A DNA stretch of 64,000 bases from an uncultured Candidatus Saccharibacteria bacterium (GCA_964483665.1 CAZACP010000001.1:6358-70357); one strand, 5' to 3'. Shown: positions 4,501-56,775, numbered from the stretch's first letter. A program made the numbers and translations. The notes: generated from the sequence alone by a model not told the origin.

Positions 4501-4537
4501 AAAATGTGCCGCCCCGGAAATGCTCGTCGGGGCGGCT
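4501..4537 (-). terminator. Rho-independent terminator for the minus-strand orphan gene
   Basis: gccgccccg...cggggcggc stem followed by a T-run on the minus strand. Confidence 0.6.
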
Positions 4538-4542
4538 GGTGG

Positions 4543-4881
4543 TTATTCGCGTGGCCTGCGAGGCCGGTTAGGCGGTTGATAGCGGCGATCCTTGTATGGA
4601 TCGTCTTTATGCAGCCAGCCGTGAAAGCCTTCTAACCCGTAAATTGAAGGGGGACTGACGTCTTGAGGGTACGACGGGGTTGCGGTTTCGGAAGAACCGC
4701 CGAAGAGCTCAGTTGTCTCTTCTGCGCCGGTCATGAACGGAATTCCTTGGCTTGGGTCGGGTACGAACCCTAACCCTCCAGAAAAAGGCATATTGTGGCT
4801 TGTTCGAGTTGGCGGGTTTCCTAGACCCATAAACCCTTCCATAATTTCATCATGGTTTGCGATAGTTAAACAGTGTGCCAT
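4543..4881 (-). CDS. Orphan G+C-rich small protein (Pro/Gly/Ser-rich, basic C-terminal tail)
   Basis: Only long ORF in a visibly GC-rich patch; perfect SD ggaggaaagtgATG; no family recognised. Confidence 0.45.
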   Translation of the reverse strand: MAHCLTIANHDEIMEGFMGLGNPPTRTSHNMPFSGGLGFVPDPSQGIPFMTGAEETTELFGGSSETATPSYPQDVSPPSIYGLEGFHGWLHKDDPYKDRRYQPPNRPRRPRE

Positions 4882-5175
4882 CACTTTCCTCCTCTCCGGG
4901 GAAGTATAAAAAATTACAGAGAGAGAGTCAACTATTCACAGATACACAGATAATATGCAGATTGCACAGATAAGCATATTGTCATTCCGAGCGGAGCGAG
5001 GAATCGCTTCGCGATTGTTTATTAACAAGTTTTAGTATTACCGAAAGTTAAGGGATCCTTCGACTCCTCGACAATTTTAATCTAAAAATTGTCTCGTTGC
5101 TCAGGATTACAAAACATGTTGAGATTGGTTATATTTTTACCTATTTTATACCTTAATTTTTTGATTAGAAATAAC

Positions 5176-5233: not shown

Positions 5234-5452
5234 TTAATCCTCATCTTCATCATCGCTTTCATCGAGAGGGCAGTCGGTGCACCGGCCGCTTCCACAACAC
5301 CCGTGAGCTTCGAGGTATTCGTTATAAAGTTTGAGAATTTTATCTATATGGTAGGTACCATCTTTTAACCTTCCTTCTGCTAAGGCTTTCTTTGCCCAAG
5401 CTTCTGCCATGAAGTGGCTACCACCGGTAATGATCATGAGCCTCCTTTTCAT
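5234..5452 (-). CDS. Small Cys-rich protein with acidic tail (HGCCGSGRCTDCPLDESDDEDED); unknown function
   Basis: Starts 9 nt after the miaA stop on the same strand, so probably co-transcribed; aaggaggctcATG SD at the second Met. Confidence 0.5.
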   Translation of the reverse strand: MKRRLMIITGGSHFMAEAWAKKALAEGRLKDGTYHIDKILKLYNEYLEAHGCCGSGRCTDCPLDESDDEDED

Positions 5453-27119: not shown

Positions 27120-27160
27120 CACAGATACGCAGATACTTCAGAGCGCACAGATAAAACACC
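27120..27160. repeat. Left cacagata-type repeat block bracketing the GxxExxY ORF
   Basis: tctcacagatacgcagatac...cacagataaaac; its reverse complement (gtatctgagtatctgtg) lies at 27545..27585. Confidence 0.7.
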
Positions 27161-30575: not shown

Positions 30576-30676
30576 ATAAAAATTTGATATAATTAATTTA
30601 TTGAACTCGCATACAGAAATAAATTAATTTCGAAAAAGTATCTGTGGTATCTGTGCGCTGAAAAGATCTGTGATCT

Positions 30677-48899: not shown

Positions 48900-50243
48900 T
48901 TATATTATAGCTTTTTCGAGCATTTCTTTCAAATCATTTTGTACAATTTTGGCCAAAGTTTCTCTTTCGGGATGTACTTGTGAATTGAGTTCTTGGATAC
49001 TCGCCCATTTAAAACCTATAAACTCTTTTTGATCCATTTGAATTTCAGTGTCTGAACCTAAAAATTTTAAATAAACTATGGTTTGTTTTTGCCCGCAGTT
49101 TTTATGGTTTCTGTTTTTAAACAGTTTGCGAAGCGCGTTGTTCCAATAATAGATGTTTGTTTTGTCGGAAATTTTAATTAGGTCTAAATTTTTTATACCT
49201 GTTTCTTCAAAAGCTTCCCGCTTGGCCGCGGCAGTTGTCTCCTCTCCTTTGTCTATACCGCCTTGTGGCAACTGCCAGTAGTTTTTTTGTTTAAGTCTTT
49301 CTTCGGAATTAATCAGATCTATATAAAAATCTTTGGGGCTTCTTTCGCCGATTAAAACTTTATTTTCTTTATTTAAAATTACCACAGCCACGTTTTGCCT
49401 AAGCGGGTAGCTGTTAAAAATTTTATACCTCATTAGCATGGCTATAAGCCCAAAAGTCGCGTTAAAAATGCGCCTTAGCCTATATGGCTGGGTTATTAGC
49501 CTAAATAGCCATTCTAAACCCATTTTACGCACAAATTTGGGCGGATTTAGGCGCTTTTTGGCAATATAGTCAAAAGTACCGCCCAGGCCAATTGCCAATT
49601 TTACGGGCAAATTTTTAAGGTTGGCCTGTATCCAGGCCTCCTGTTTAATTGGCCCGTAGGCTACAAATAATATGTCAGGTGAAGCTTTTTTTATGTCTTC
49701 GTATATGGTAGGATCTTCCGGATTCTTACCCGAGAAACCGGCAATACGGAGGCCGGGATATTTTGTTATTAAAATATTCGAAACTAGTTTTGGAGTATTT
49801 CCAAAACCGCCTAAAAGGTAAATTGAAAAATTATTTTCTTCAGCCATTTTGGCAATATCCCAAATCAGCTCTGAACCCGGAATGGTTTCAAAATCCCTTT
49901 TTTTAAATAAAAGTTTTAATAGAGTTAGCTTTATTTGCCAAAGGCTTTGTAAAATTTTTCCCAAATACGATTTTGCGGTAAGCGGCAAATTTAAAAATTT
50001 ATGCGCCCAAAAAATTCCTATGCCGTCTGGCACGGCAATATCCGCCTGGTTTAGCATTGTCATAACCCTAGGGTCCTTTAGGGCCGCATACAAAAATTCC
50101 GAGTAAACAGTGGTTACCCAGGTTTGTTGATTTAAAGCTATACGATTTTTTAACTTATCGATAAGTTCTGATTTGGGCAGAGTATCGATTTTAAGTCCCG
50201 CAACGTCTATTTTATGCATAAGAAAATTATACCTATTTACCAT
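48900..50243 (-). CDS. WecB/TagA/CpsF-family glycosyltransferase fused to a C-terminal Nudix hydrolase domain
   Basis: N-terminal TagA-like fold; C-terminal Nudix box GGIDKGEETTAAAKREAFEETGI. Confidence 0.7.
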   Translation of the reverse strand: MVNRYNFLMHKIDVAGLKIDTLPKSELIDKLKNRIALNQQTWVTTVYSEFLYAALKDPRVMTMLNQADIAVPDGIGIFWAHKFLNLPLTAKSYLGKILQSLWQIKLTLLKLLFKKRDFETIPGSELIWDIAKMAEENNFSIYLLGGFGNTPKLVSNILITKYPGLRIAGFSGKNPEDPTIYEDIKKASPDILFVAYGPIKQEAWIQANLKNLPVKLAIGLGGTFDYIAKKRLNPPKFVRKMGLEWLFRLITQPYRLRRIFNATFGLIAMLMRYKIFNSYPLRQNVAVVILNKENKVLIGERSPKDFYIDLINSEERLKQKNYWQLPQGGIDKGEETTAAAKREAFEETGIKNLDLIKISDKTNIYYWNNALRKLFKNRNHKNCGQKQTIVYLKFLGSDTEIQMDQKEFIGFKWASIQELNSQVHPERETLAKIVQNDLKEMLEKAII

Positions 50244-50353: not shown

Positions 50354-50737
50354 GTGACTTCAAAAAGAGTTCTAACAGCTCTTGAGTCTCAACAGGTTAG
50401 TGCAATGGCTCAAGCTATTGTTACTATTCGTTCAATCAACTTCAGCTTACTACTACAAGTAGGAACTGAATTTGACCTCATGCTTGCATCGCTGTATCCT
50501 TTTGGTATCTTGGGGGTTATGGCTGTGATGCAAAGCTCGATGTCGGGTGAAAGTCGTAAGGCTTTTTACGTGCACCTGATGTCCGGACTGCCGTATTACT
50601 ATACCAGTTTTGGCGACATCGTAAGGTGCGTATTCGGTGGAGACGAAATAGCGGCAAGGCAGGCCTTGGCAATAGGTCAGGAAATTCTGGAACTTGCCCC
50701 ACAGCATTTTCCGGAATTACGTAGGATTGGGTTGTAG
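50354..50737 (+). CDS. Orphan GC-richer protein, GTG start with perfect SD (ggaggaaaaactGTG)
   Basis: 127 aa; no family recognised. Confidence 0.4.
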   Translation: MTSKRVLTALESQQVSAMAQAIVTIRSINFSLLLQVGTEFDLMLASLYPFGILGVMAVMQSSMSGESRKAFYVHLMSGLPYYYTSFGDIVRCVFGGDEIAARQALAIGQEILELAPQHFPELRRIGL

Positions 50738-50898: not shown

Positions 50899-51177
50899 AT
50901 GGAAAGTTTAGGAAATATTGCTAAATTTAGCAAAAAAACATCTGCGAAAGTAAAACCAAATAGTCACCTCCACTCCCCCGCCCACTTGCTCGCAGACGAA
51001 CTGTGCCAGAAATTTAACGACAAAAAGCATTTTGCTTTTTATTTAAAAATGGCCGTACTTTACGACCATAATTATTTAAGAAACCTCGCGGGGCAAATTT
51101 TGGAAAGCAAGACTGTTCAAACCCCGGGCAAACTTTTTGCTTATTTGATTAAGAAAAACAACTTGGAAATGAAATAA
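50899..51177 (+). CDS. Hypothetical protein
   Basis: 92-aa ORF; an acidic ~52-aa ORF follows at 51181. Confidence 0.35.
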   Translation: MESLGNIAKFSKKTSAKVKPNSHLHSPAHLLADELCQKFNDKKHFAFYLKMAVLYDHNYLRNLAGQILESKTVQTPGKLFAYLIKKNNLEMK

Positions 51178-51401
51178 TTTATGGAAAAACAGGGTAATAA
51201 AGAATCTGAAAACCGAGAGACGAAAGGGCATAATTATGAATCTGACATGGATTTTGCCGATCCGTTTGAAGAAGAATTTTCGGCTCCTTCTGACCCATTC
51301 AGCCCACCTGATCTAGAAATTAAAGGAAAAAAAGAGTAACTGCAGTCGGTAGTATGTTGCATGTTAACGCAAAATTTTACTACTTACTACTTACTACTAC
51401 C

Positions 51402-51887
51402 ATGATTTTGCCAATAAAAAAACACCCGGATCCAGTGCTTAGGGCTAAAACAGAGCCAGTGGTTTTTCCTTTGTCTCCACAAATAGAGAAATTAACCAAA
51501 GATATGTTTGACACAGTAAAGGCCGCAGACGGTATCGGGCTTGCCGCGCCGCAGGTCGGCAAGAGTGTAAAATTAATTGTCATAAACTTGGAAAAATCCG
51601 GCGTTCCTTTGTTCGCGCTTTACAACCCGCGCATTAAGTCAAAAGGATTTAGAAAAGTGGAAATAGAAGAAGGCTGTCTTTCTTTGCCGGGAATTTACGG
51701 TATGGTTAAGCGGCCAAAAAAAGTTATTATAGAAGCCCAAAACCACAAGGGAGAAAAAATTCTAATTCGCGACGACGGCTGGGTTTCCAGGGTTGCCCAG
51801 CATGAAATAGACCACATAAACGGAATTTTAATAATAGACCTTATAAAGAAATACACAAAGGGAGAAAATTTACTAAATACGAATTAA
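51402..51887 (+). CDS. def: Peptide deformylase
   Basis: GIGLAAPQVG, EGCLSLPG and HEIDHING motifs; the upstream tacttactac words are intergenic. Confidence 0.9.
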   Translation: MILPIKKHPDPVLRAKTEPVVFPLSPQIEKLTKDMFDTVKAADGIGLAAPQVGKSVKLIVINLEKSGVPLFALYNPRIKSKGFRKVEIEEGCLSLPGIYGMVKRPKKVIIEAQNHKGEKILIRDDGWVSRVAQHEIDHINGILIIDLIKKYTKGENLLNTN

Positions 51888-51950
51888 TACGAATATACTA
51901 ATTTTGTTCCCATTCGTATATTAGTAAGTATTAGTATTTTGGTAAAAAAT

Positions 51951-52490
51951 ATGAAGTTTATAAAAGACCTTTTATTTTTCGAAATTAGCACTACCGGGCC
52001 GGATTTAGACAAAGACAACATTATTCAGCTTTCCGCCGTGCTTATAGACAAAGACAACCTTTTGGAAAAGGATTTTTTTAATTCCTATATCCGCATAAGC
52101 TATTTAGACAGTTTGCTTTTGGCGCATTCAAAGTTGCTAAATATAGACTATGAAAAAATGAAGAAAAGCCCAAAGCCACCCGAGGCTTTAAAGGCTTTTC
52201 ACAACAAGTTTAACCCGGCTTTAATTTTACTGGCCACCCAGAGCACCAGCAATATTTTGTTTTTAAAATCGGCTTTTAGAAAAGTCCTTTTGCCTTTTGA
52301 CTACAACCAGCACTCCTTAGACCTGTGGACTTTGGGCTACGTTTACACTTTAAATTACGGTCTTAAAAAAATGCCTTCTTTACATACTTTTGTCGAGTAT
52401 TTTAAACTTAAGCAGCACTACCCTTACGACGCGCTTGAAAAAGCCCGTCTTGAGGCGGAAATTTTTAGAAAAATAATTAAAGAAGTGTAA
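51951..52490 (+). CDS. DnaQ-like 3'-5' exonuclease paralog with degenerate catalytic motifs
   Basis: Exo I FFEISTTG (D and E not conserved) and Y instead of H in Exo III (YDALEKAR). Confidence 0.55.
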   Translation: MKFIKDLLFFEISTTGPDLDKDNIIQLSAVLIDKDNLLEKDFFNSYIRISYLDSLLLAHSKLLNIDYEKMKKSPKPPEALKAFHNKFNPALILLATQSTSNILFLKSAFRKVLLPFDYNQHSLDLWTLGYVYTLNYGLKKMPSLHTFVEYFKLKQHYPYDALEKARLEAEIFRKIIKEV

Positions 52491-52586
52491 CCCATTCGAA
52501 CCTGCGAATTAATCCGAATAATCCTTATACTTATGTATTTAGACTTCGGGTCATTCGGATGTTGTTCGGATATTAGGAGCGCTACT

Positions 52587-53141
52587 ATGAATTTTCACAA
52601 AGATTTATTACTCATTGATCTAGAAACCACCGGACTTGATGCGTCTCGTCAGGAAATTATTCAGTTGTCCGCTATACTGCTGGACAAGAAAACTTTAAAG
52701 GAAAAAAGTTTTTTTAATGCTTATGCAAAACCTGTTAAATGGGCGCAAAGAAACAAAGAGTCTATGAGAATAAACGGCATAAAAAAGGAATGGCTTAACG
52801 CCGCTCCGTCGCTTAGCAGCGTTTTAAAGGAATTTAACAAAAAGTTTAATGCCTCAGAAGTTATTTTGAGTTACTATGGCGGGCCGGTGGATATGGATTT
52901 TTTGCGCGCCGCATACTATAAGCACAAAATAAAATGGCAGTTCGATTACCATTATTTTAACCTTTGGGCGTATTTTTACGCGGTACTGGCTGGAAAAAAT
53001 CAACTTAAAAACAAAAAAAAGTTTACCGGTTTTAGTTTGGAAGATTTAATGAAGAAATTTAAAATAAAGTCCCAAAGCCGGCATGACGGCTTAGAGGATT
53101 GTCGGATTGAGGCGGAGGTTTTGAGAAAATTAATAAAATAA
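52587..53141 (+). CDS. DnaQ-like DEDDh 3'-5' exonuclease (intact motifs)
   Basis: Exo I IDLETTG; Exo III HDGLEDC. Confidence 0.7.
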   Translation: MNFHKDLLLIDLETTGLDASRQEIIQLSAILLDKKTLKEKSFFNAYAKPVKWAQRNKESMRINGIKKEWLNAAPSLSSVLKEFNKKFNASEVILSYYGGPVDMDFLRAAYYKHKIKWQFDYHYFNLWAYFYAVLAGKNQLKNKKKFTGFSLEDLMKKFKIKSQSRHDGLEDCRIEAEVLRKLIK

Positions 53142-53251
53142 TTTTGTCTACTTGTATTTTTTATTTCTGTAGATATTTGGATAAAAAAATATTCGGGATC
53201 CAGAAGCCTAGGGGTTTAGGCTGTCGGATCCCGAAATTAGCATGGTCGAGC

Positions 53252-53587
53252 TTATTTTAAGTCTTTCCCGAACAGCCACTCGACTGGCAGTGTCCAATCT
53301 TGCGGCCTATCATCTTCTGGAACCGCCCCTTCTTCCGGCTGGAATTGTCCAACAGTGAATCCCAGACCTTTCGTGTATTCCTCGATAGCGTTTGCCTCCT
53401 CTGGTGTCAGAGCTTCCAACTCTACATTTGCGTGCATATACCCTAGGGCTGCTGCTTCGCGAAGTTGGGGGCGGACCACGGTTCGGTAATACTTGCTTGG
53501 ATTTTTGCTGAACGCTTCTTCTCTAGCTTTCAATGATTTGTATCCGCGCAAGCTGAGTCCGCGTATACTTCTCAGCTGATTTGTCAT
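53252..53587 (-). CDS. Orphan GC-rich small protein with a perfect SD (aaggagtgagtgATG)
   Basis: Sits between the exonuclease pair and fmt; no family recognised. Confidence 0.45.
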   Translation of the reverse strand: MTNQLRSIRGLSLRGYKSLKAREEAFSKNPSKYYRTVVRPQLREAAALGYMHANVELEALTPEEANAIEEYTKGLGFTVGQFQPEEGAVPEDDRPQDWTLPVEWLFGKDLK

Positions 53588-53729
53588 CACTCACTCCTTT
53601 ATTTCGGACTAAAGAAAAATATCAGAGAGAGTTTTGTCAATAATCTACGGAATATGTATACTGCACTACAGATGTCTATAGAGTTTTTGTAGGTATCTGT
53701 AGATTCGTATAATTTGTAGTTTTGTAGAT

Positions 53730-54662
53730 ATGAAAATTGTATTTTTTGGAACATCTAACGTGGCTTTGCCAATTTTAGAAGCGCTGTCTAAGCAGCACGA
53801 AATTTTGGCAGTGGTTACCAGACCCGACGTTAAAGTAGGGAGAAAACAGGAAATACAGGATTCGCCTGTCAGTGTTTTGGCTACGGAAATGAAGTTAAAA
53901 ATTTTAAAACCGCAAAAGGTTAAGGGCAATAAAGAGTTTTACGAAGAACTTAAAAATTTTGGCGCAGATATTTTTGTGGTAGTTTCTTACGGCCAAATTA
54001 TGCCGTCGGAAATTATTAATATGCCAAAATATAAAACCATTAACGTGCATTTTTCGGTTTTGCCAAAATATAGAGGCCCCTCCCCTATTCAGTTTGCATT
54101 GCTTAACGGTGAATCATATACCGGCACATCGGTTTTTATTTTAGACGAAAAAGTTGACCACGGCCCCTTGCTTGCGACCGAACAAATACAAATAGACGCG
54201 GACGATAATTTTTTAACTCTTTCTCAAAAGTTGGCTTATAAGTCAGCTGCTGTAATTAACGAAGTCATTGCTAATTACGTTTTAGGTAAAATTACTCCCC
54301 TGCCCCAAAACGAAGCACTTGCCACTTACACCAAAATAATTACCAAAGCCGACGGCAAGGTAGACTGGAGCAAAACCGCTGGGGAAATTTATAACCAGTT
54401 TCGAGCTTTTTACCCTTGGCCAGGGCTTTGGACTACCTGGCAGGGAAAAATTTTAAAAATTACAGATGTATCAGTAATTCCCAATGTTGTCGAATCCCCT
54501 CTTATACAAAAAGGCGGCGGTGTCTTAGAAAATGGCGTAGTCGTTTGCGCGAAAAATACTTTTTTACAAATAAAAACCCTCCAAATGGAGGGTAAAAAGG
54601 AAATGACAGTTTCAGATTTTGTTAATGGTAACAGAAATTTTCTTGGTTCACTACTCGGTTAG
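53730..54662 (+). CDS. fmt: Methionyl-tRNA formyltransferase
   Basis: MKIVFFGTS...; formyl-transferase N- and C-terminal domains; HFSVLPKYRG. Confidence 0.9.
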   Translation: MKIVFFGTSNVALPILEALSKQHEILAVVTRPDVKVGRKQEIQDSPVSVLATEMKLKILKPQKVKGNKEFYEELKNFGADIFVVVSYGQIMPSEIINMPKYKTINVHFSVLPKYRGPSPIQFALLNGESYTGTSVFILDEKVDHGPLLATEQIQIDADDNFLTLSQKLAYKSAAVINEVIANYVLGKITPLPQNEALATYTKIITKADGKVDWSKTAGEIYNQFRAFYPWPGLWTTWQGKILKITDVSVIPNVVESPLIQKGGGVLENGVVVCAKNTFLQIKTLQMEGKKEMTVSDFVNGNRNFLGSLLG

Positions 54663-54860
54663 ATTCTCCAATTTTTGTCCATGAGATAGTAAAAAAAGAT
54701 TTATTTCCGCTAAAGCAGCATTTTGTTGGTTTTCGGTTAATTCCATTACAGCATGGTTAATTTCTGAGCGTGTGATTGTTTTTTGTTCTTCGTATTTTCG
54801 TTTAATTAGGTTGACTGCGTGGCTTATAGAGTCAAAATTTTGTTCTGTTTCATTTTTCAT
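54651..54860 (-). CDS. Small hypothetical protein
   Basis: 69 aa, AT-typical; precedes mltG on the same strand. Confidence 0.3.
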   Translation of the reverse strand: MKNETEQNFDSISHAVNLIKRKYEEQKTITRSEINHAVMELTENQQNAALAEINLFLLSHGQKLENLTE

Positions 54861-55717: not shown

Positions 55718-55883
55718 CTTTAAAATCTGGTTTTTATACCAGTTGATTATACCATATTACTTTCGCAGATACACAGATGAAGAAAATAGCACAGATTAGT
55801 ACCTATTACTGCTGCTCAAGAATTGTAGCCCCCTATTTATAAAGACATACGTGTAATCTGTGTTAAATTTGTGTATCTGCGAT

Positions 55884-56576
55884 CTACATTTTTTTAGTTA
55901 AGCCGTTTTCAACCTCATCGAGAATCTTTTTAGCGTGTTCTTTGCCGCCAAGACCAAAGGCAATGCCGCCGGCAATGGCTATCATGGCTACAATAGCTCT
56001 AAATAAGTCTATTAAGAAGTCCGTGGCAATTTGGAGTTGGGAAAGCGAAGCAATAAGCGCAAAAATTACAATTGCCCATTTGGTAATGCTGGCCAGCGCA
56101 GAAGCTGAAGCGTTAAGCCCGCTGGCTTTAACCGAAGATCCGACAATTCCTGAGAAAAAGTTTGCAGCTAAAATTCCCAAAAGCAAAATTGCCATGGCTA
56201 TTATGACCTGGCCGCCGTAAGCGAGCACGCTGTCGTAAAAGAAGCGACTTACTTCATTAAGTCCTAAAATTTCAGCGGTTGCAATAAAGCTGCCTAAGAA
56301 AAAGAACCACTTTATTATCCAGGCGCCTAAAGCGGAAAGGCTGAGTTTTTTTCCAACCTTCTCACCTAAAGAAGCAAGTCCTAGCGAATTGGCAAGCTGG
56401 TCTATTTTTATCGCGTTTAAGATTTTTTCAACAAAGTTAGAAAGCAGGCTGCCCAAAAGCCAGCCGAAAATTATTACAATAATCGCCGCAAGTAAATTTG
56501 GTAAAAACCAAAGTACTCTCTCGTAGAGGTCGCCAAGCGATGTTAATACAGTTGATTGATATGTCATTAGATTCAC
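55884..56576 (-). CDS. Polytopic membrane protein with conserved TM-helix repeats (MscS-N-terminal-like)
   Basis: Repeated Ala/Gly/Ile-rich helices. Confidence 0.5.
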   Translation of the reverse strand: MNLMTYQSTVLTSLGDLYERVLWFLPNLLAAIIVIIFGWLLGSLLSNFVEKILNAIKIDQLANSLGLASLGEKVGKKLSLSALGAWIIKWFFFLGSFIATAEILGLNEVSRFFYDSVLAYGGQVIIAMAILLLGILAANFFSGIVGSSVKASGLNASASALASITKWAIVIFALIASLSQLQIATDFLIDLFRAIVAMIAIAGGIAFGLGGKEHAKKILDEVENGLTKKM

Positions 56577-56775
56577 AGATACACGGATAACACAGATAAC
56601 ACAGATTTTGTGTTAGTGAGATCCGTGAGATTAATTTATTATTTATTATTATCTTTGTTTCGTTAAGGTTTCCGGTATCGACCTTAACCGGGTTGTTTAA
56701 TTTTAGATTTTTGATTACAGATTTTAGATTGTGTTAGAATCTAAAATCCAAAATTTTTAATTTGCGATTATAATT

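Follow-up and report, generated by a model that had tools for sequence, protein, structure and literature searches.

In a 64,000-nucleotide stretch of DNA from an uncultured Candidatus Saccharibacteria bacterium (GCA_964483665.1, CAZACP010000001.1:6358-70357; the whole stretch is hereafter called the window), the genes coding for peptide deformylase (def) and methionyl-tRNA formyltransferase (fmt) are separated by two adjacent genes of the DEDDh exonuclease fold, here named exo1 and exo2. The exo2 gene preserves the complete set of catalytic residues, whereas exo1 has lost it. Specifically, exo1 is a conserved pseudo-enzyme under strong purifying selection, and def-exo1-exo2-fmt is an old, vertically inherited gene order, conserved in about 70 species and ancestral to the clade. 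The window, AT-rich with a GC content of 39%, is Patescibacteria sequence, and its homologues in public records carry the label Candidatus Doudnabacteria.

The two genes are paralogues sharing 33% identity (E 1e-30) and are each other's closest relatives, the best relative in the PDB standing at E 1.6e-8. Hidden Markov models (HMMs) of the two families find each other at 1e-33 to 1e-36, and a search with them detected no further member of either family in the window. The catalytic residues of exo2 are D11, E13, D102, H166 and D171, the last two in the spacing H166-x4-D171, and the DEDHD set is kept in 69 of 69 exo2-type sequences. At the five columns aligned to these residues exo1 carries E, S, N, Y and K, and none of 79 exo1-type orthologues possesses the full set. 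In particular, the Asp of ExoII is replaced by Asn in 43 of the 69 exo1 copies that are paired with an exo2 and is retained in none, while Lys or Arg takes the place of the ExoIII Asp in 67 of the 69; both aspartates are absent from all exo1-type orthologues, and the column of the ExoIII His is occupied in the paired copies by Y, F, H, W and others. An earlier note on this DNA, made from the sequence alone, had described a degenerate/intact exonuclease duo, and its description is borne out at the aligned columns (ESNYK against DEDHD); the open reading frames (ORFs) likewise lie where the note placed them, with the peptides FFEISTTG and YDALEKAR in exo1 and IDLETTG and HDGLEDC in exo2. Both proteins exceed the gathering score of 24 bits of the RNase_T family PF00929 (scores in Table 1). 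With its catalytic residues lost, exo1 belongs to the DEDDh fold family and not to the enzyme class.

The conservation of exo1 exceeds that of its active paralogue. Mean pairwise identity is 59% for exo1 and 50% for exo2, with exo1 the higher of the two in 91% of species pairs, and the level of the exo1 distances is comparable to that of def. The 349 homologues, mostly of 178 amino acids (aa), are 64-70% identical across species; the reading frame of 178-179 aa is intact in more than 300 of them, the protein is identical in many independent samples of the same species, and long motifs, including DKDNLLEK and LWTLGYIYTLNYGLKKMP, are near-invariant. AlphaFold2 models built from family alignments reach a pLDDT of 92.8 for exo1 and 95.8 for exo2. 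When compared with the PDB by Foldseek, both models match solved DEDDh nucleases with a probability of 1.00 and TM scores of about 0.7-0.8 to many of them. The structures matched by both are the exonuclease domain of S. aureus DinG, a S. thermophilus DnaQ domain, CRN-4, ERI3, RNase T, 3'hExo and the epsilon subunit of DNA polymerase III (Pol III). Specifically, TM scores are 0.75-0.79 for exo1 against the DinG exonuclease domain, the DnaQ domain, CRN-4, ERI3 and RNase T, and 0.71-0.78 for exo2 against ERI3, the DinG exonuclease domain, Pol III epsilon and RNase T; among these PDB matches no DEDDh subfamily stands out. The models thus allow us to assign to both proteins, with confidence, a generic DnaQ/RNase T/ERI-like fold.

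The genomic setting of the pair was followed by a scan of one genome per species, which returned 77 Doudnabacteria-like loci, with gene order established by tblastn using the window proteins. The order WecG-NUDIX (minus strand), p92, def, exo1, exo2, fmt, YceG (minus strand) is found in essentially all of them, and the same order recurs in independent metagenome contigs. The def gene holds the same position at all related loci and exo1 always follows it immediately, while exo1 and exo2 are adjacent at every one of the 68 loci that contain both. In 8 divergent species (L084-L091) an exo1-type gene stands alone between def and fmt at this locus, with the signatures DENHN, SENHN or DQNRN. The earlier note had taken def and fmt to be normally adjacent and the intervening 1.8 kb to be an insertion. 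In the relatives, def-exo1-exo2-fmt is the conserved order, and since this order is fixed, the two exonuclease genes were not inserted into this genome; the lineage-specific part of the def-fmt interval is only a 588-bp segment, carrying a further gene on the opposite strand (hereafter the orphan), for which the idea of an insertion does hold. The split def-fmt arrangement is therefore a lineage marker. Patescibacteria genomes are very small, and genes fixed in place across such a lineage are probably important.

In a neighbour-joining analysis, rooted on two exonuclease domains from the PDB and bootstrapped on a subsample, all exo1-type sequences, including those of the single-copy loci, fall into one clade (77% bootstrap), the single-copy loci forming a monophyletic group with 100% support and the paired exo1 genes one with 87%. 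This topology, with its weakly supported rooting, suggests that the exo1/exo2 split is older than the single-copy group, whose members would have lost or relocated exo2 afterwards.

As for function, we consider it fairly probable, though far from assured, that exo2 serves as a housekeeping 3'-5' exonuclease, with exo1 as its non-catalytic, nucleic-acid-binding partner in a putative heterodimer. The role of a binding subunit is proposed for exo1 because the fold is kept, the metal ligands are lost and selection is stronger than on exo2. In the proposed mechanism, exo2 would act as a metal-dependent DEDDh 3'-5' exonuclease on single-stranded 3' ends, RNA end trimming or oligonucleotide turnover being as likely as DNA to provide its substrate. 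The exo1 protein would be unable to bind the two catalytic metals and would retain the substrate groove, with Lys or Arg at the position of the former Asp ligand, and could serve as a non-catalytic subunit or as a binder of 3' ends. The two proteins might then associate like the protomers of the RNase T dimer, one holding the strand and the other cutting it, with a single active site in the assembly. Both RNase T protomers touch one and the same strand, the 3' end of which sits in one active site (PMC3439924).

Several observations are consistent with such a partnership. Of all pairs formed by p92 (a conserved 92-aa ORF upstream of def), def, exo1, exo2 and fmt, exo1 and exo2 have the most strongly correlated distance matrices (r = 0.82). 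The partial correlation, when def, fmt and p92 are controlled for, is 0.67 (permutation p = 0.001), a value that does not change when the alignments are built separately. In 19 of 68 species at most 20 nt separate the stop of exo1 from the start of exo2, or the two overlap, a spacing that fits co-translation of subunits, and both families are basic, with pI values of about 9.1 and 9.6. Some results, however, count against a heterodimer. For def and fmt, whose products form no complex with each other, the partial distance correlation still reaches 0.52, so that the co-variation test is only suggestive; high pI values are frequent in AT-rich genomes; and in the 8 divergent species exo1 has no exo2 beside it.

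This last point leads to the main alternative, that exo1 acts alone, either as a pseudo-nuclease binding the 3' ends of RNA or DNA, or as a protein scaffold, its adjacency to exo2 being the result of tandem duplication. Since the single-copy loci fall inside the exo1 clade, exo1 can persist without an adjacent exo2, although exo2 could sit elsewhere in those eight genomes. Moreover, exo1 is the more conserved gene and the one always placed right after def, the Lys or Arg in place of its acidic metal ligands could touch phosphate directly, and the eukaryotic RNA-binding DEDD pseudonucleases, such as Exuperantia and Egalitarian, provide a precedent (PMC5785220). The distances of exo1 also show partial correlations with those of fmt (0.24) and p92 (0.33), whereas those of exo2 show none with either. 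Against this, exo1 co-varies most strongly with exo2, and the two genes are neighbours wherever both occur and tightly coupled in the 19 species mentioned above. We regard an independent role of exo1 as possible but doubtful.

A more specific version of the heterodimer, which we regard as unlikely in its details, would have exo1 and exo2 form an obligate asymmetric heterodimer, with one catalytic protomer and one that does nothing but hold the substrate, for a translation-linked task at RNA 3' ends, for example the trimming or protection of tRNA or initiator-tRNA 3' ends. If true, this would explain both the top conservation of the dead subunit and the fixed place of the pair between def and fmt across a class-level lineage, and exo1 would become the first stand-alone pseudonuclease of the DEDDh type in bacteria to have a defined role.

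The source annotations name both genes 'DNA polymerase III epsilon subunit', which raises the question whether exo2 is the replicative proofreading subunit (DnaQ), with exo1 as an accessory or vestigial copy. The best NCBIfam matches of exo2, the PolC exonuclease domain and the dnaq family model, would agree with this, and so would a Foldseek TM score of 0.76-0.78 to Escherichia coli epsilon; the best solved relative by sequence is the PolC exonuclease domain of Thermotoga maritima (2p1j, E 1.6e-8). Every curated NCBIfam model, however, scores far below its cut-off on exo2, as with TIGR00573 (52.9 against 71.5, exo1 reaching 25.4) and dnaQ_proteo TIGR01406 (41.0 against 222.7). The Orn model NF003765 reaches 20.6 bits against a cut-off of 106 and covers residues 4-35 only, and no RNase T model is found among the 25 NCBIfam matches listed. 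In E. coli, a C-terminal segment tethers epsilon to the alpha subunit, with a clamp-binding motif adjacent to it. The 184-aa exo2 lacks the tethering segment and has no room for the motif, as it ends with EAEVLRKLIK straight after the ExoIII helix, and exo1 ends likewise. In addition, ERI3, RNase T, the DinG exonuclease domain and CRN-4 are equally similar in structure, and the operon context is related to translation, not to replication. Proofreading by exo2 thus appears improbable, and for exo1 the proofreading implied by the automatic 'DNA polymerase III epsilon/alpha subunit' labels is impossible, so that these labels are in need of the correction offered here.

The earlier note had pointed to active/dead nuclease pairs as a theme of regulated nuclease and defence systems. 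Very improbable is the corresponding reading that the two genes form a module for anti-phage defence, or some other regulated toxic nuclease, in which the dead paralogue regulates the active one, and that this module was inserted between def and fmt. Pairs of an active and a dead paralogue do occur in some systems, and PADLOC returns its generic 'DEDDh, CAS-associated' model (exo2 7e-24, exo1 5e-9) together with weak partial matches to PDC-S48, to an exonuclease 'Effector' model and to RTasSbcB (DRT). Nevertheless, these matches cover only the shared catalytic domain, and PADLOC finds no system partner genes nearby. The position and order of the pair are fixed in about 70 species and its divergence tracks that of def and fmt, a distribution opposite to that of patchy, mobile defence islands; the neighbours of the block (WecG-NUDIX, def, fmt, YceG, YjbQ and HU) are all housekeeping genes, and no mobile-element signatures surround the pair. 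Least credible of all, that exo1 is a decaying pseudogene or a sequencing or assembly error in a once-intact exonuclease, as the alteration of five out of five catalytic positions in this genome could suggest, is ruled out by the comparative data, namely the degeneration of all 79 orthologues, the strong conservation with its long invariant motifs, the intact frames, the identical protein in independent samples and the confident model. To the earlier note, conservation of both genes with intact motifs in relatives would have meant such an error in the first copy; both genes are indeed conserved, but exo1 is degenerate everywhere, which strengthens its reading as a pseudo-enzyme.

With a level of conservation like that of peptide deformylase and above that of its active paralogue, the dead exonuclease-fold protein represents a new family of bacterial pseudo-enzymes, for which a partner for biochemical tests is at hand. 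If the pair does form a heterodimer with a single active site, it would also be a simple example of the way in which asymmetric nucleases arise from homodimeric ones.

Table 1. Features of the def-fmt region, with positions counted from the first nucleotide of the window
Feature	Position	Strand	Description	Basis
p92	50899..51177	+	Conserved 92-aa ORF, heads the p92-def-exo1-exo2-fmt block	tblastn
def	51402..51887	+	Peptide deformylase	Pfam PF01327 Pep_deformylase, E 9.6e-46
exo1	51951..52490	+	Catalytically dead DEDDh-fold paralogue, 179 aa	RNase_T PF00929, 33.7 bits
exo2	52587..53141	+	Intact DEDDh 3'-5' exonuclease (predicted), 184 aa	RNase_T PF00929, 97.7 bits; AGGAG Shine-Dalgarno
Hairpin	53192..53235	both	Probable bidirectional terminator	Inverted repeat I1 and folding energy
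Orphan gene	53252..53587	-	111 aa	AAGGAG Shine-Dalgarno; no family match
Divergent promoter/leader region	53588..53729	both		CT/GA tract 53623-53631, fmt promoter 53634-53662, hairpin ~53666-53702
fmt	53730..54662	+	Methionyl-tRNA formyltransferase	Pfam PF00551 Formyl_trans_N 9.4e-39, PF02911 Formyl_trans_C 3.7e-24

The orphan is a separate and recent event, a lineage-specific cargo in the slot between exo2 and fmt, and is tied to the exonuclease pair by position only. As the earlier note had stated, it is preceded by a Shine-Dalgarno sequence and is GC-rich. Its GC content is 50%, and searches of Pfam, NCBIfam and PADLOC gave no match. Its GC content is weak evidence of foreign origin, because GC-rich stretches are common in the window, those of at least 47% GC being scattered across it and many lying within ordinary genes. 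A word-indexed search of 5.8 billion proteins retrieved only the orphan itself, which recurs across numerous samples of the one species and invariably in this setting. An exhaustive HMMER search added a single homologue (P0122, 103 aa, 59% identity), which is encoded on a 663-bp contig, where it too runs towards the 3' end of an exo2 gene. Upstream of this exo2 3' end (L016, 445-661) the gene call passes into a different reading frame, which points to a frameshift or to chimeric assembly of the short contig. Between the orphan and its homologue, identity by codon position is 0.63, 0.68 and 0.37, and pN (0.33) is far below pS (0.83), so that the orphan is a real coding gene under purifying selection; the codon-position divergence, the Shine-Dalgarno sequence and the terminator rule out a spurious ORF. 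It evolves much faster than the neighbouring genes, and its product combines a basic N-terminal half (pI 11.0) with an acidic C-terminal half (pI 4.1). The gene is absent from the closest relatives, namely L017 (whose exo1 is 89% identical), L013, L014 and L015.

The slot itself is variable and a hotspot for small genes. The spacer between exo2 and the fmt start measures 5-135 nt in most species and 320-770 nt in ten (L017, L020, L021, L023, L024, L027, L028, L034, L038 and L040), and the long spacers hold differing, unrelated small ORFs. Those of L017 and L028 match DUF4177 below its threshold (18-19 bits, cut-off 25) and that of L034 marginally (E 0.15), these ORFs being 53-65 aa long, while the ORF of L024 has no such match; L040 carries a 245-aa ORF with no Pfam match, and small hydrophobic ORFs, probably membrane-spanning, occur as well. 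A derivation of the orphan from the DUF4177-like gene in the L017 slot was rejected at the protein level, as no alignment was obtained at E <=100. Downstream of exo2, and between it and the convergent orphan, the hairpin listed in Table 1 folds with -27.8 kcal/mol on the plus strand (z -4.7) and -27.4 kcal/mol on the minus strand (z -6.3), and a U-run follows the minus-strand stem; it is a probable bidirectional terminator.

Between the start of the orphan and that of fmt, about 140 nt are almost identical to the corresponding region of L017, apart from 4 extra CT-repeat bases in L017 and a few substitutions, and behind this conserved promoter region the minus-strand coding sequence is entirely different in the two genomes. 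On the plus strand a promoter scan identifies TTGTCA-N17-TATACT for fmt, followed by a 17-bp leader hairpin of -20.6 kcal/mol (z -2.6). The minus strand carries the module TTGACAAAA(CT)nGATATTTTT, where n is 4 for the window, 6 for L017 and 5 for L034; in the three species it drives unrelated small minus-strand genes, namely the 111-aa orphan here and the 53-65-aa ORFs in L017 and L034. These modules lie in the region 53588-53729 of the window, at 5385-5540 in L017 and at 5560-5725 in L034, and a similar one is present at 4885-4931 of the window. The distance from TTGACA to TATTTT is 17 nt at n = 6 and 13 nt at n = 4. Phase variation through the length of (CT)n was considered and left as speculation, the length differing only between species, with n = 4 in 8 of 8 population samples of this one. 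A metagenome-wide scan for TTGAC..(CT)4G..ATTTTT returned three unrelated contigs that were without related genes. From these features we read the slot as a small divergent expression unit that arose between exo2 and fmt in a subclade and whose cargo has turned over; as judged from the predicted signals, the conserved divergent promoter would give fmt its own transcription start here, uncoupling it from the upstream operon. The slot is, in this sense, a small natural case of gene turnover behind a fixed expression signal.

A second GC-rich orphan of 112 aa lies at 4543-4881 on the minus strand, between gatB and miaA, with a GAGGAGG Shine-Dalgarno sequence and, as seen by eye, a GC-rich hairpin with a T-run past its stop (about 4505-4535); its 90%-identity cluster has 2 members. 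Beside it, a Cys-rich, acidic-tailed ORF of 72 aa (5234-5452, minus strand) abuts miaA, and neither has a family match. The promoter of this second orphan, TTGACT(CT)4GTAATTTTT-TATACT, is a good, near-consensus one of sigma-70 type. The tract that the earlier note had seen ahead of both orphans is indeed shared, as CAGAGAGAG occurs twice in the 64 kb against 0.08 expected, each time about 35-45 nt upstream of the start codon of one orphan. The GLGF motif, which the same note had also pointed out, is present in both, but the two proteins are unrelated: homology was rejected at a BLASTP E of 4.9, and GLGF is not conserved in P0122, which has SLGF, so that the sharing is best treated as chance. 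The hexamer ACAGAT/ATCTGT is found 39 times in the window against 15 expected and forms intergenic clusters of 2-3 copies, often as CACAGATA or ATCTGTG, about 40-100 nt from start codons (4938-4971, 27121-27152, 30640-30671, 53668-53700, 55773-55861 and 56575-56606). The clusters include both orphan promoters and the fmt leader hairpin, and the hexamer may represent a genome-wide regulatory or leader motif.

With regard to the surroundings of the block, p92 is directly 5' of def in nearly all 77 loci (48-87% identity), is missing only at curtailed ones and is about as well conserved as def; no match was found for it in Pfam or, by sequence, in the PDB. Upstream, at 48900-50243 on the minus strand, a single ORF of 447 aa encodes a fusion of a WecG-type glycosyltransferase with a NUDIX hydrolase, which is kept in relatives, with Pfam PF03808 and PF00293 on a single product. 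The WecG-p92 spacer is 54 bp in the closest relative, L017, and variable in others, and the p92-def spacer is much shorter in relatives than in the window. Three small ORFs annotated as genes in public records, at 50354-50737 (plus strand, 127 aa), 51181-51339 (plus strand, 52 aa) and 54651-54860 (minus strand, 69 aa), have tblastn matches solely in contigs of the same species, which suggests that small intergenic ORFs turn over frequently in this lineage. Rfam and tRNA scans of the window gave no match.

The pair can be compared with several known systems. Literature searches retrieved no account of the pair, nor of any dead DEDDh paralogue that stands alone as a bacterial protein, a result that is no proof of novelty. 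By sequence, the best relatives are the DnaQ and PolC exonuclease domains, with which exo2 shares the DEDDh motifs; it differs in scoring below the curated cut-offs, in lacking a C-terminal polymerase-binding segment, in not being fused to a polymerase and in its place in a def-fmt operon. The Rv2179c-like 3'-5' exoribonuclease family PF16473 matches residues 8-179 of exo2 with 24.4 bits against a gathering score of 27, and many exo2 orthologues carry a precomputed match to it; this likeness justifies no more than the description 'small stand-alone DEDDh exonuclease'. RNase T of E. coli, a DEDDh homodimer, has the same fold (TM about 0.75-0.77 to both proteins), a similar size and a similarly basic character. 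However, sequence identity is only 12-20%, its family is not among the NCBIfam matches listed, and RNase T has two active sites in the homodimer, whereas here the putative second protomer is a separate, permanently dead gene product.

Among eukaryotes, DEDD pseudonucleases such as Exuperantia, the Exo domain of Egalitarian and the exonuclease-like domain of PML, with which yeast Pop2 is grouped, keep a DEDD-type fold for the binding of nucleic acids or partners. Catalysis is lost in Exuperantia and dispensable in Egalitarian (PMC5785220; bioRxiv 10.64898/2026.02.19.706916). These are domains of larger proteins, whereas exo1 is a free-standing bacterial protein of 179 aa encoded beside an active paralogue in a housekeeping operon. 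A further likeness is with the prozyme pairs, trypanosome AdoMetDC/prozyme and DHS, in which a duplicate without catalytic residues is under selection and works with the active copy (PMC5201418 and PMC3663545). Activation by heteromerisation has been shown experimentally there. Prozyme pairs differ in fold and chemistry, and the exo1/exo2 pair is known here from paralogy, degeneration, selection and co-variation. Pseudo-enzyme partners and DEDD pseudonucleases are already known, and exo1/exo2 is a bacterial variant of them.

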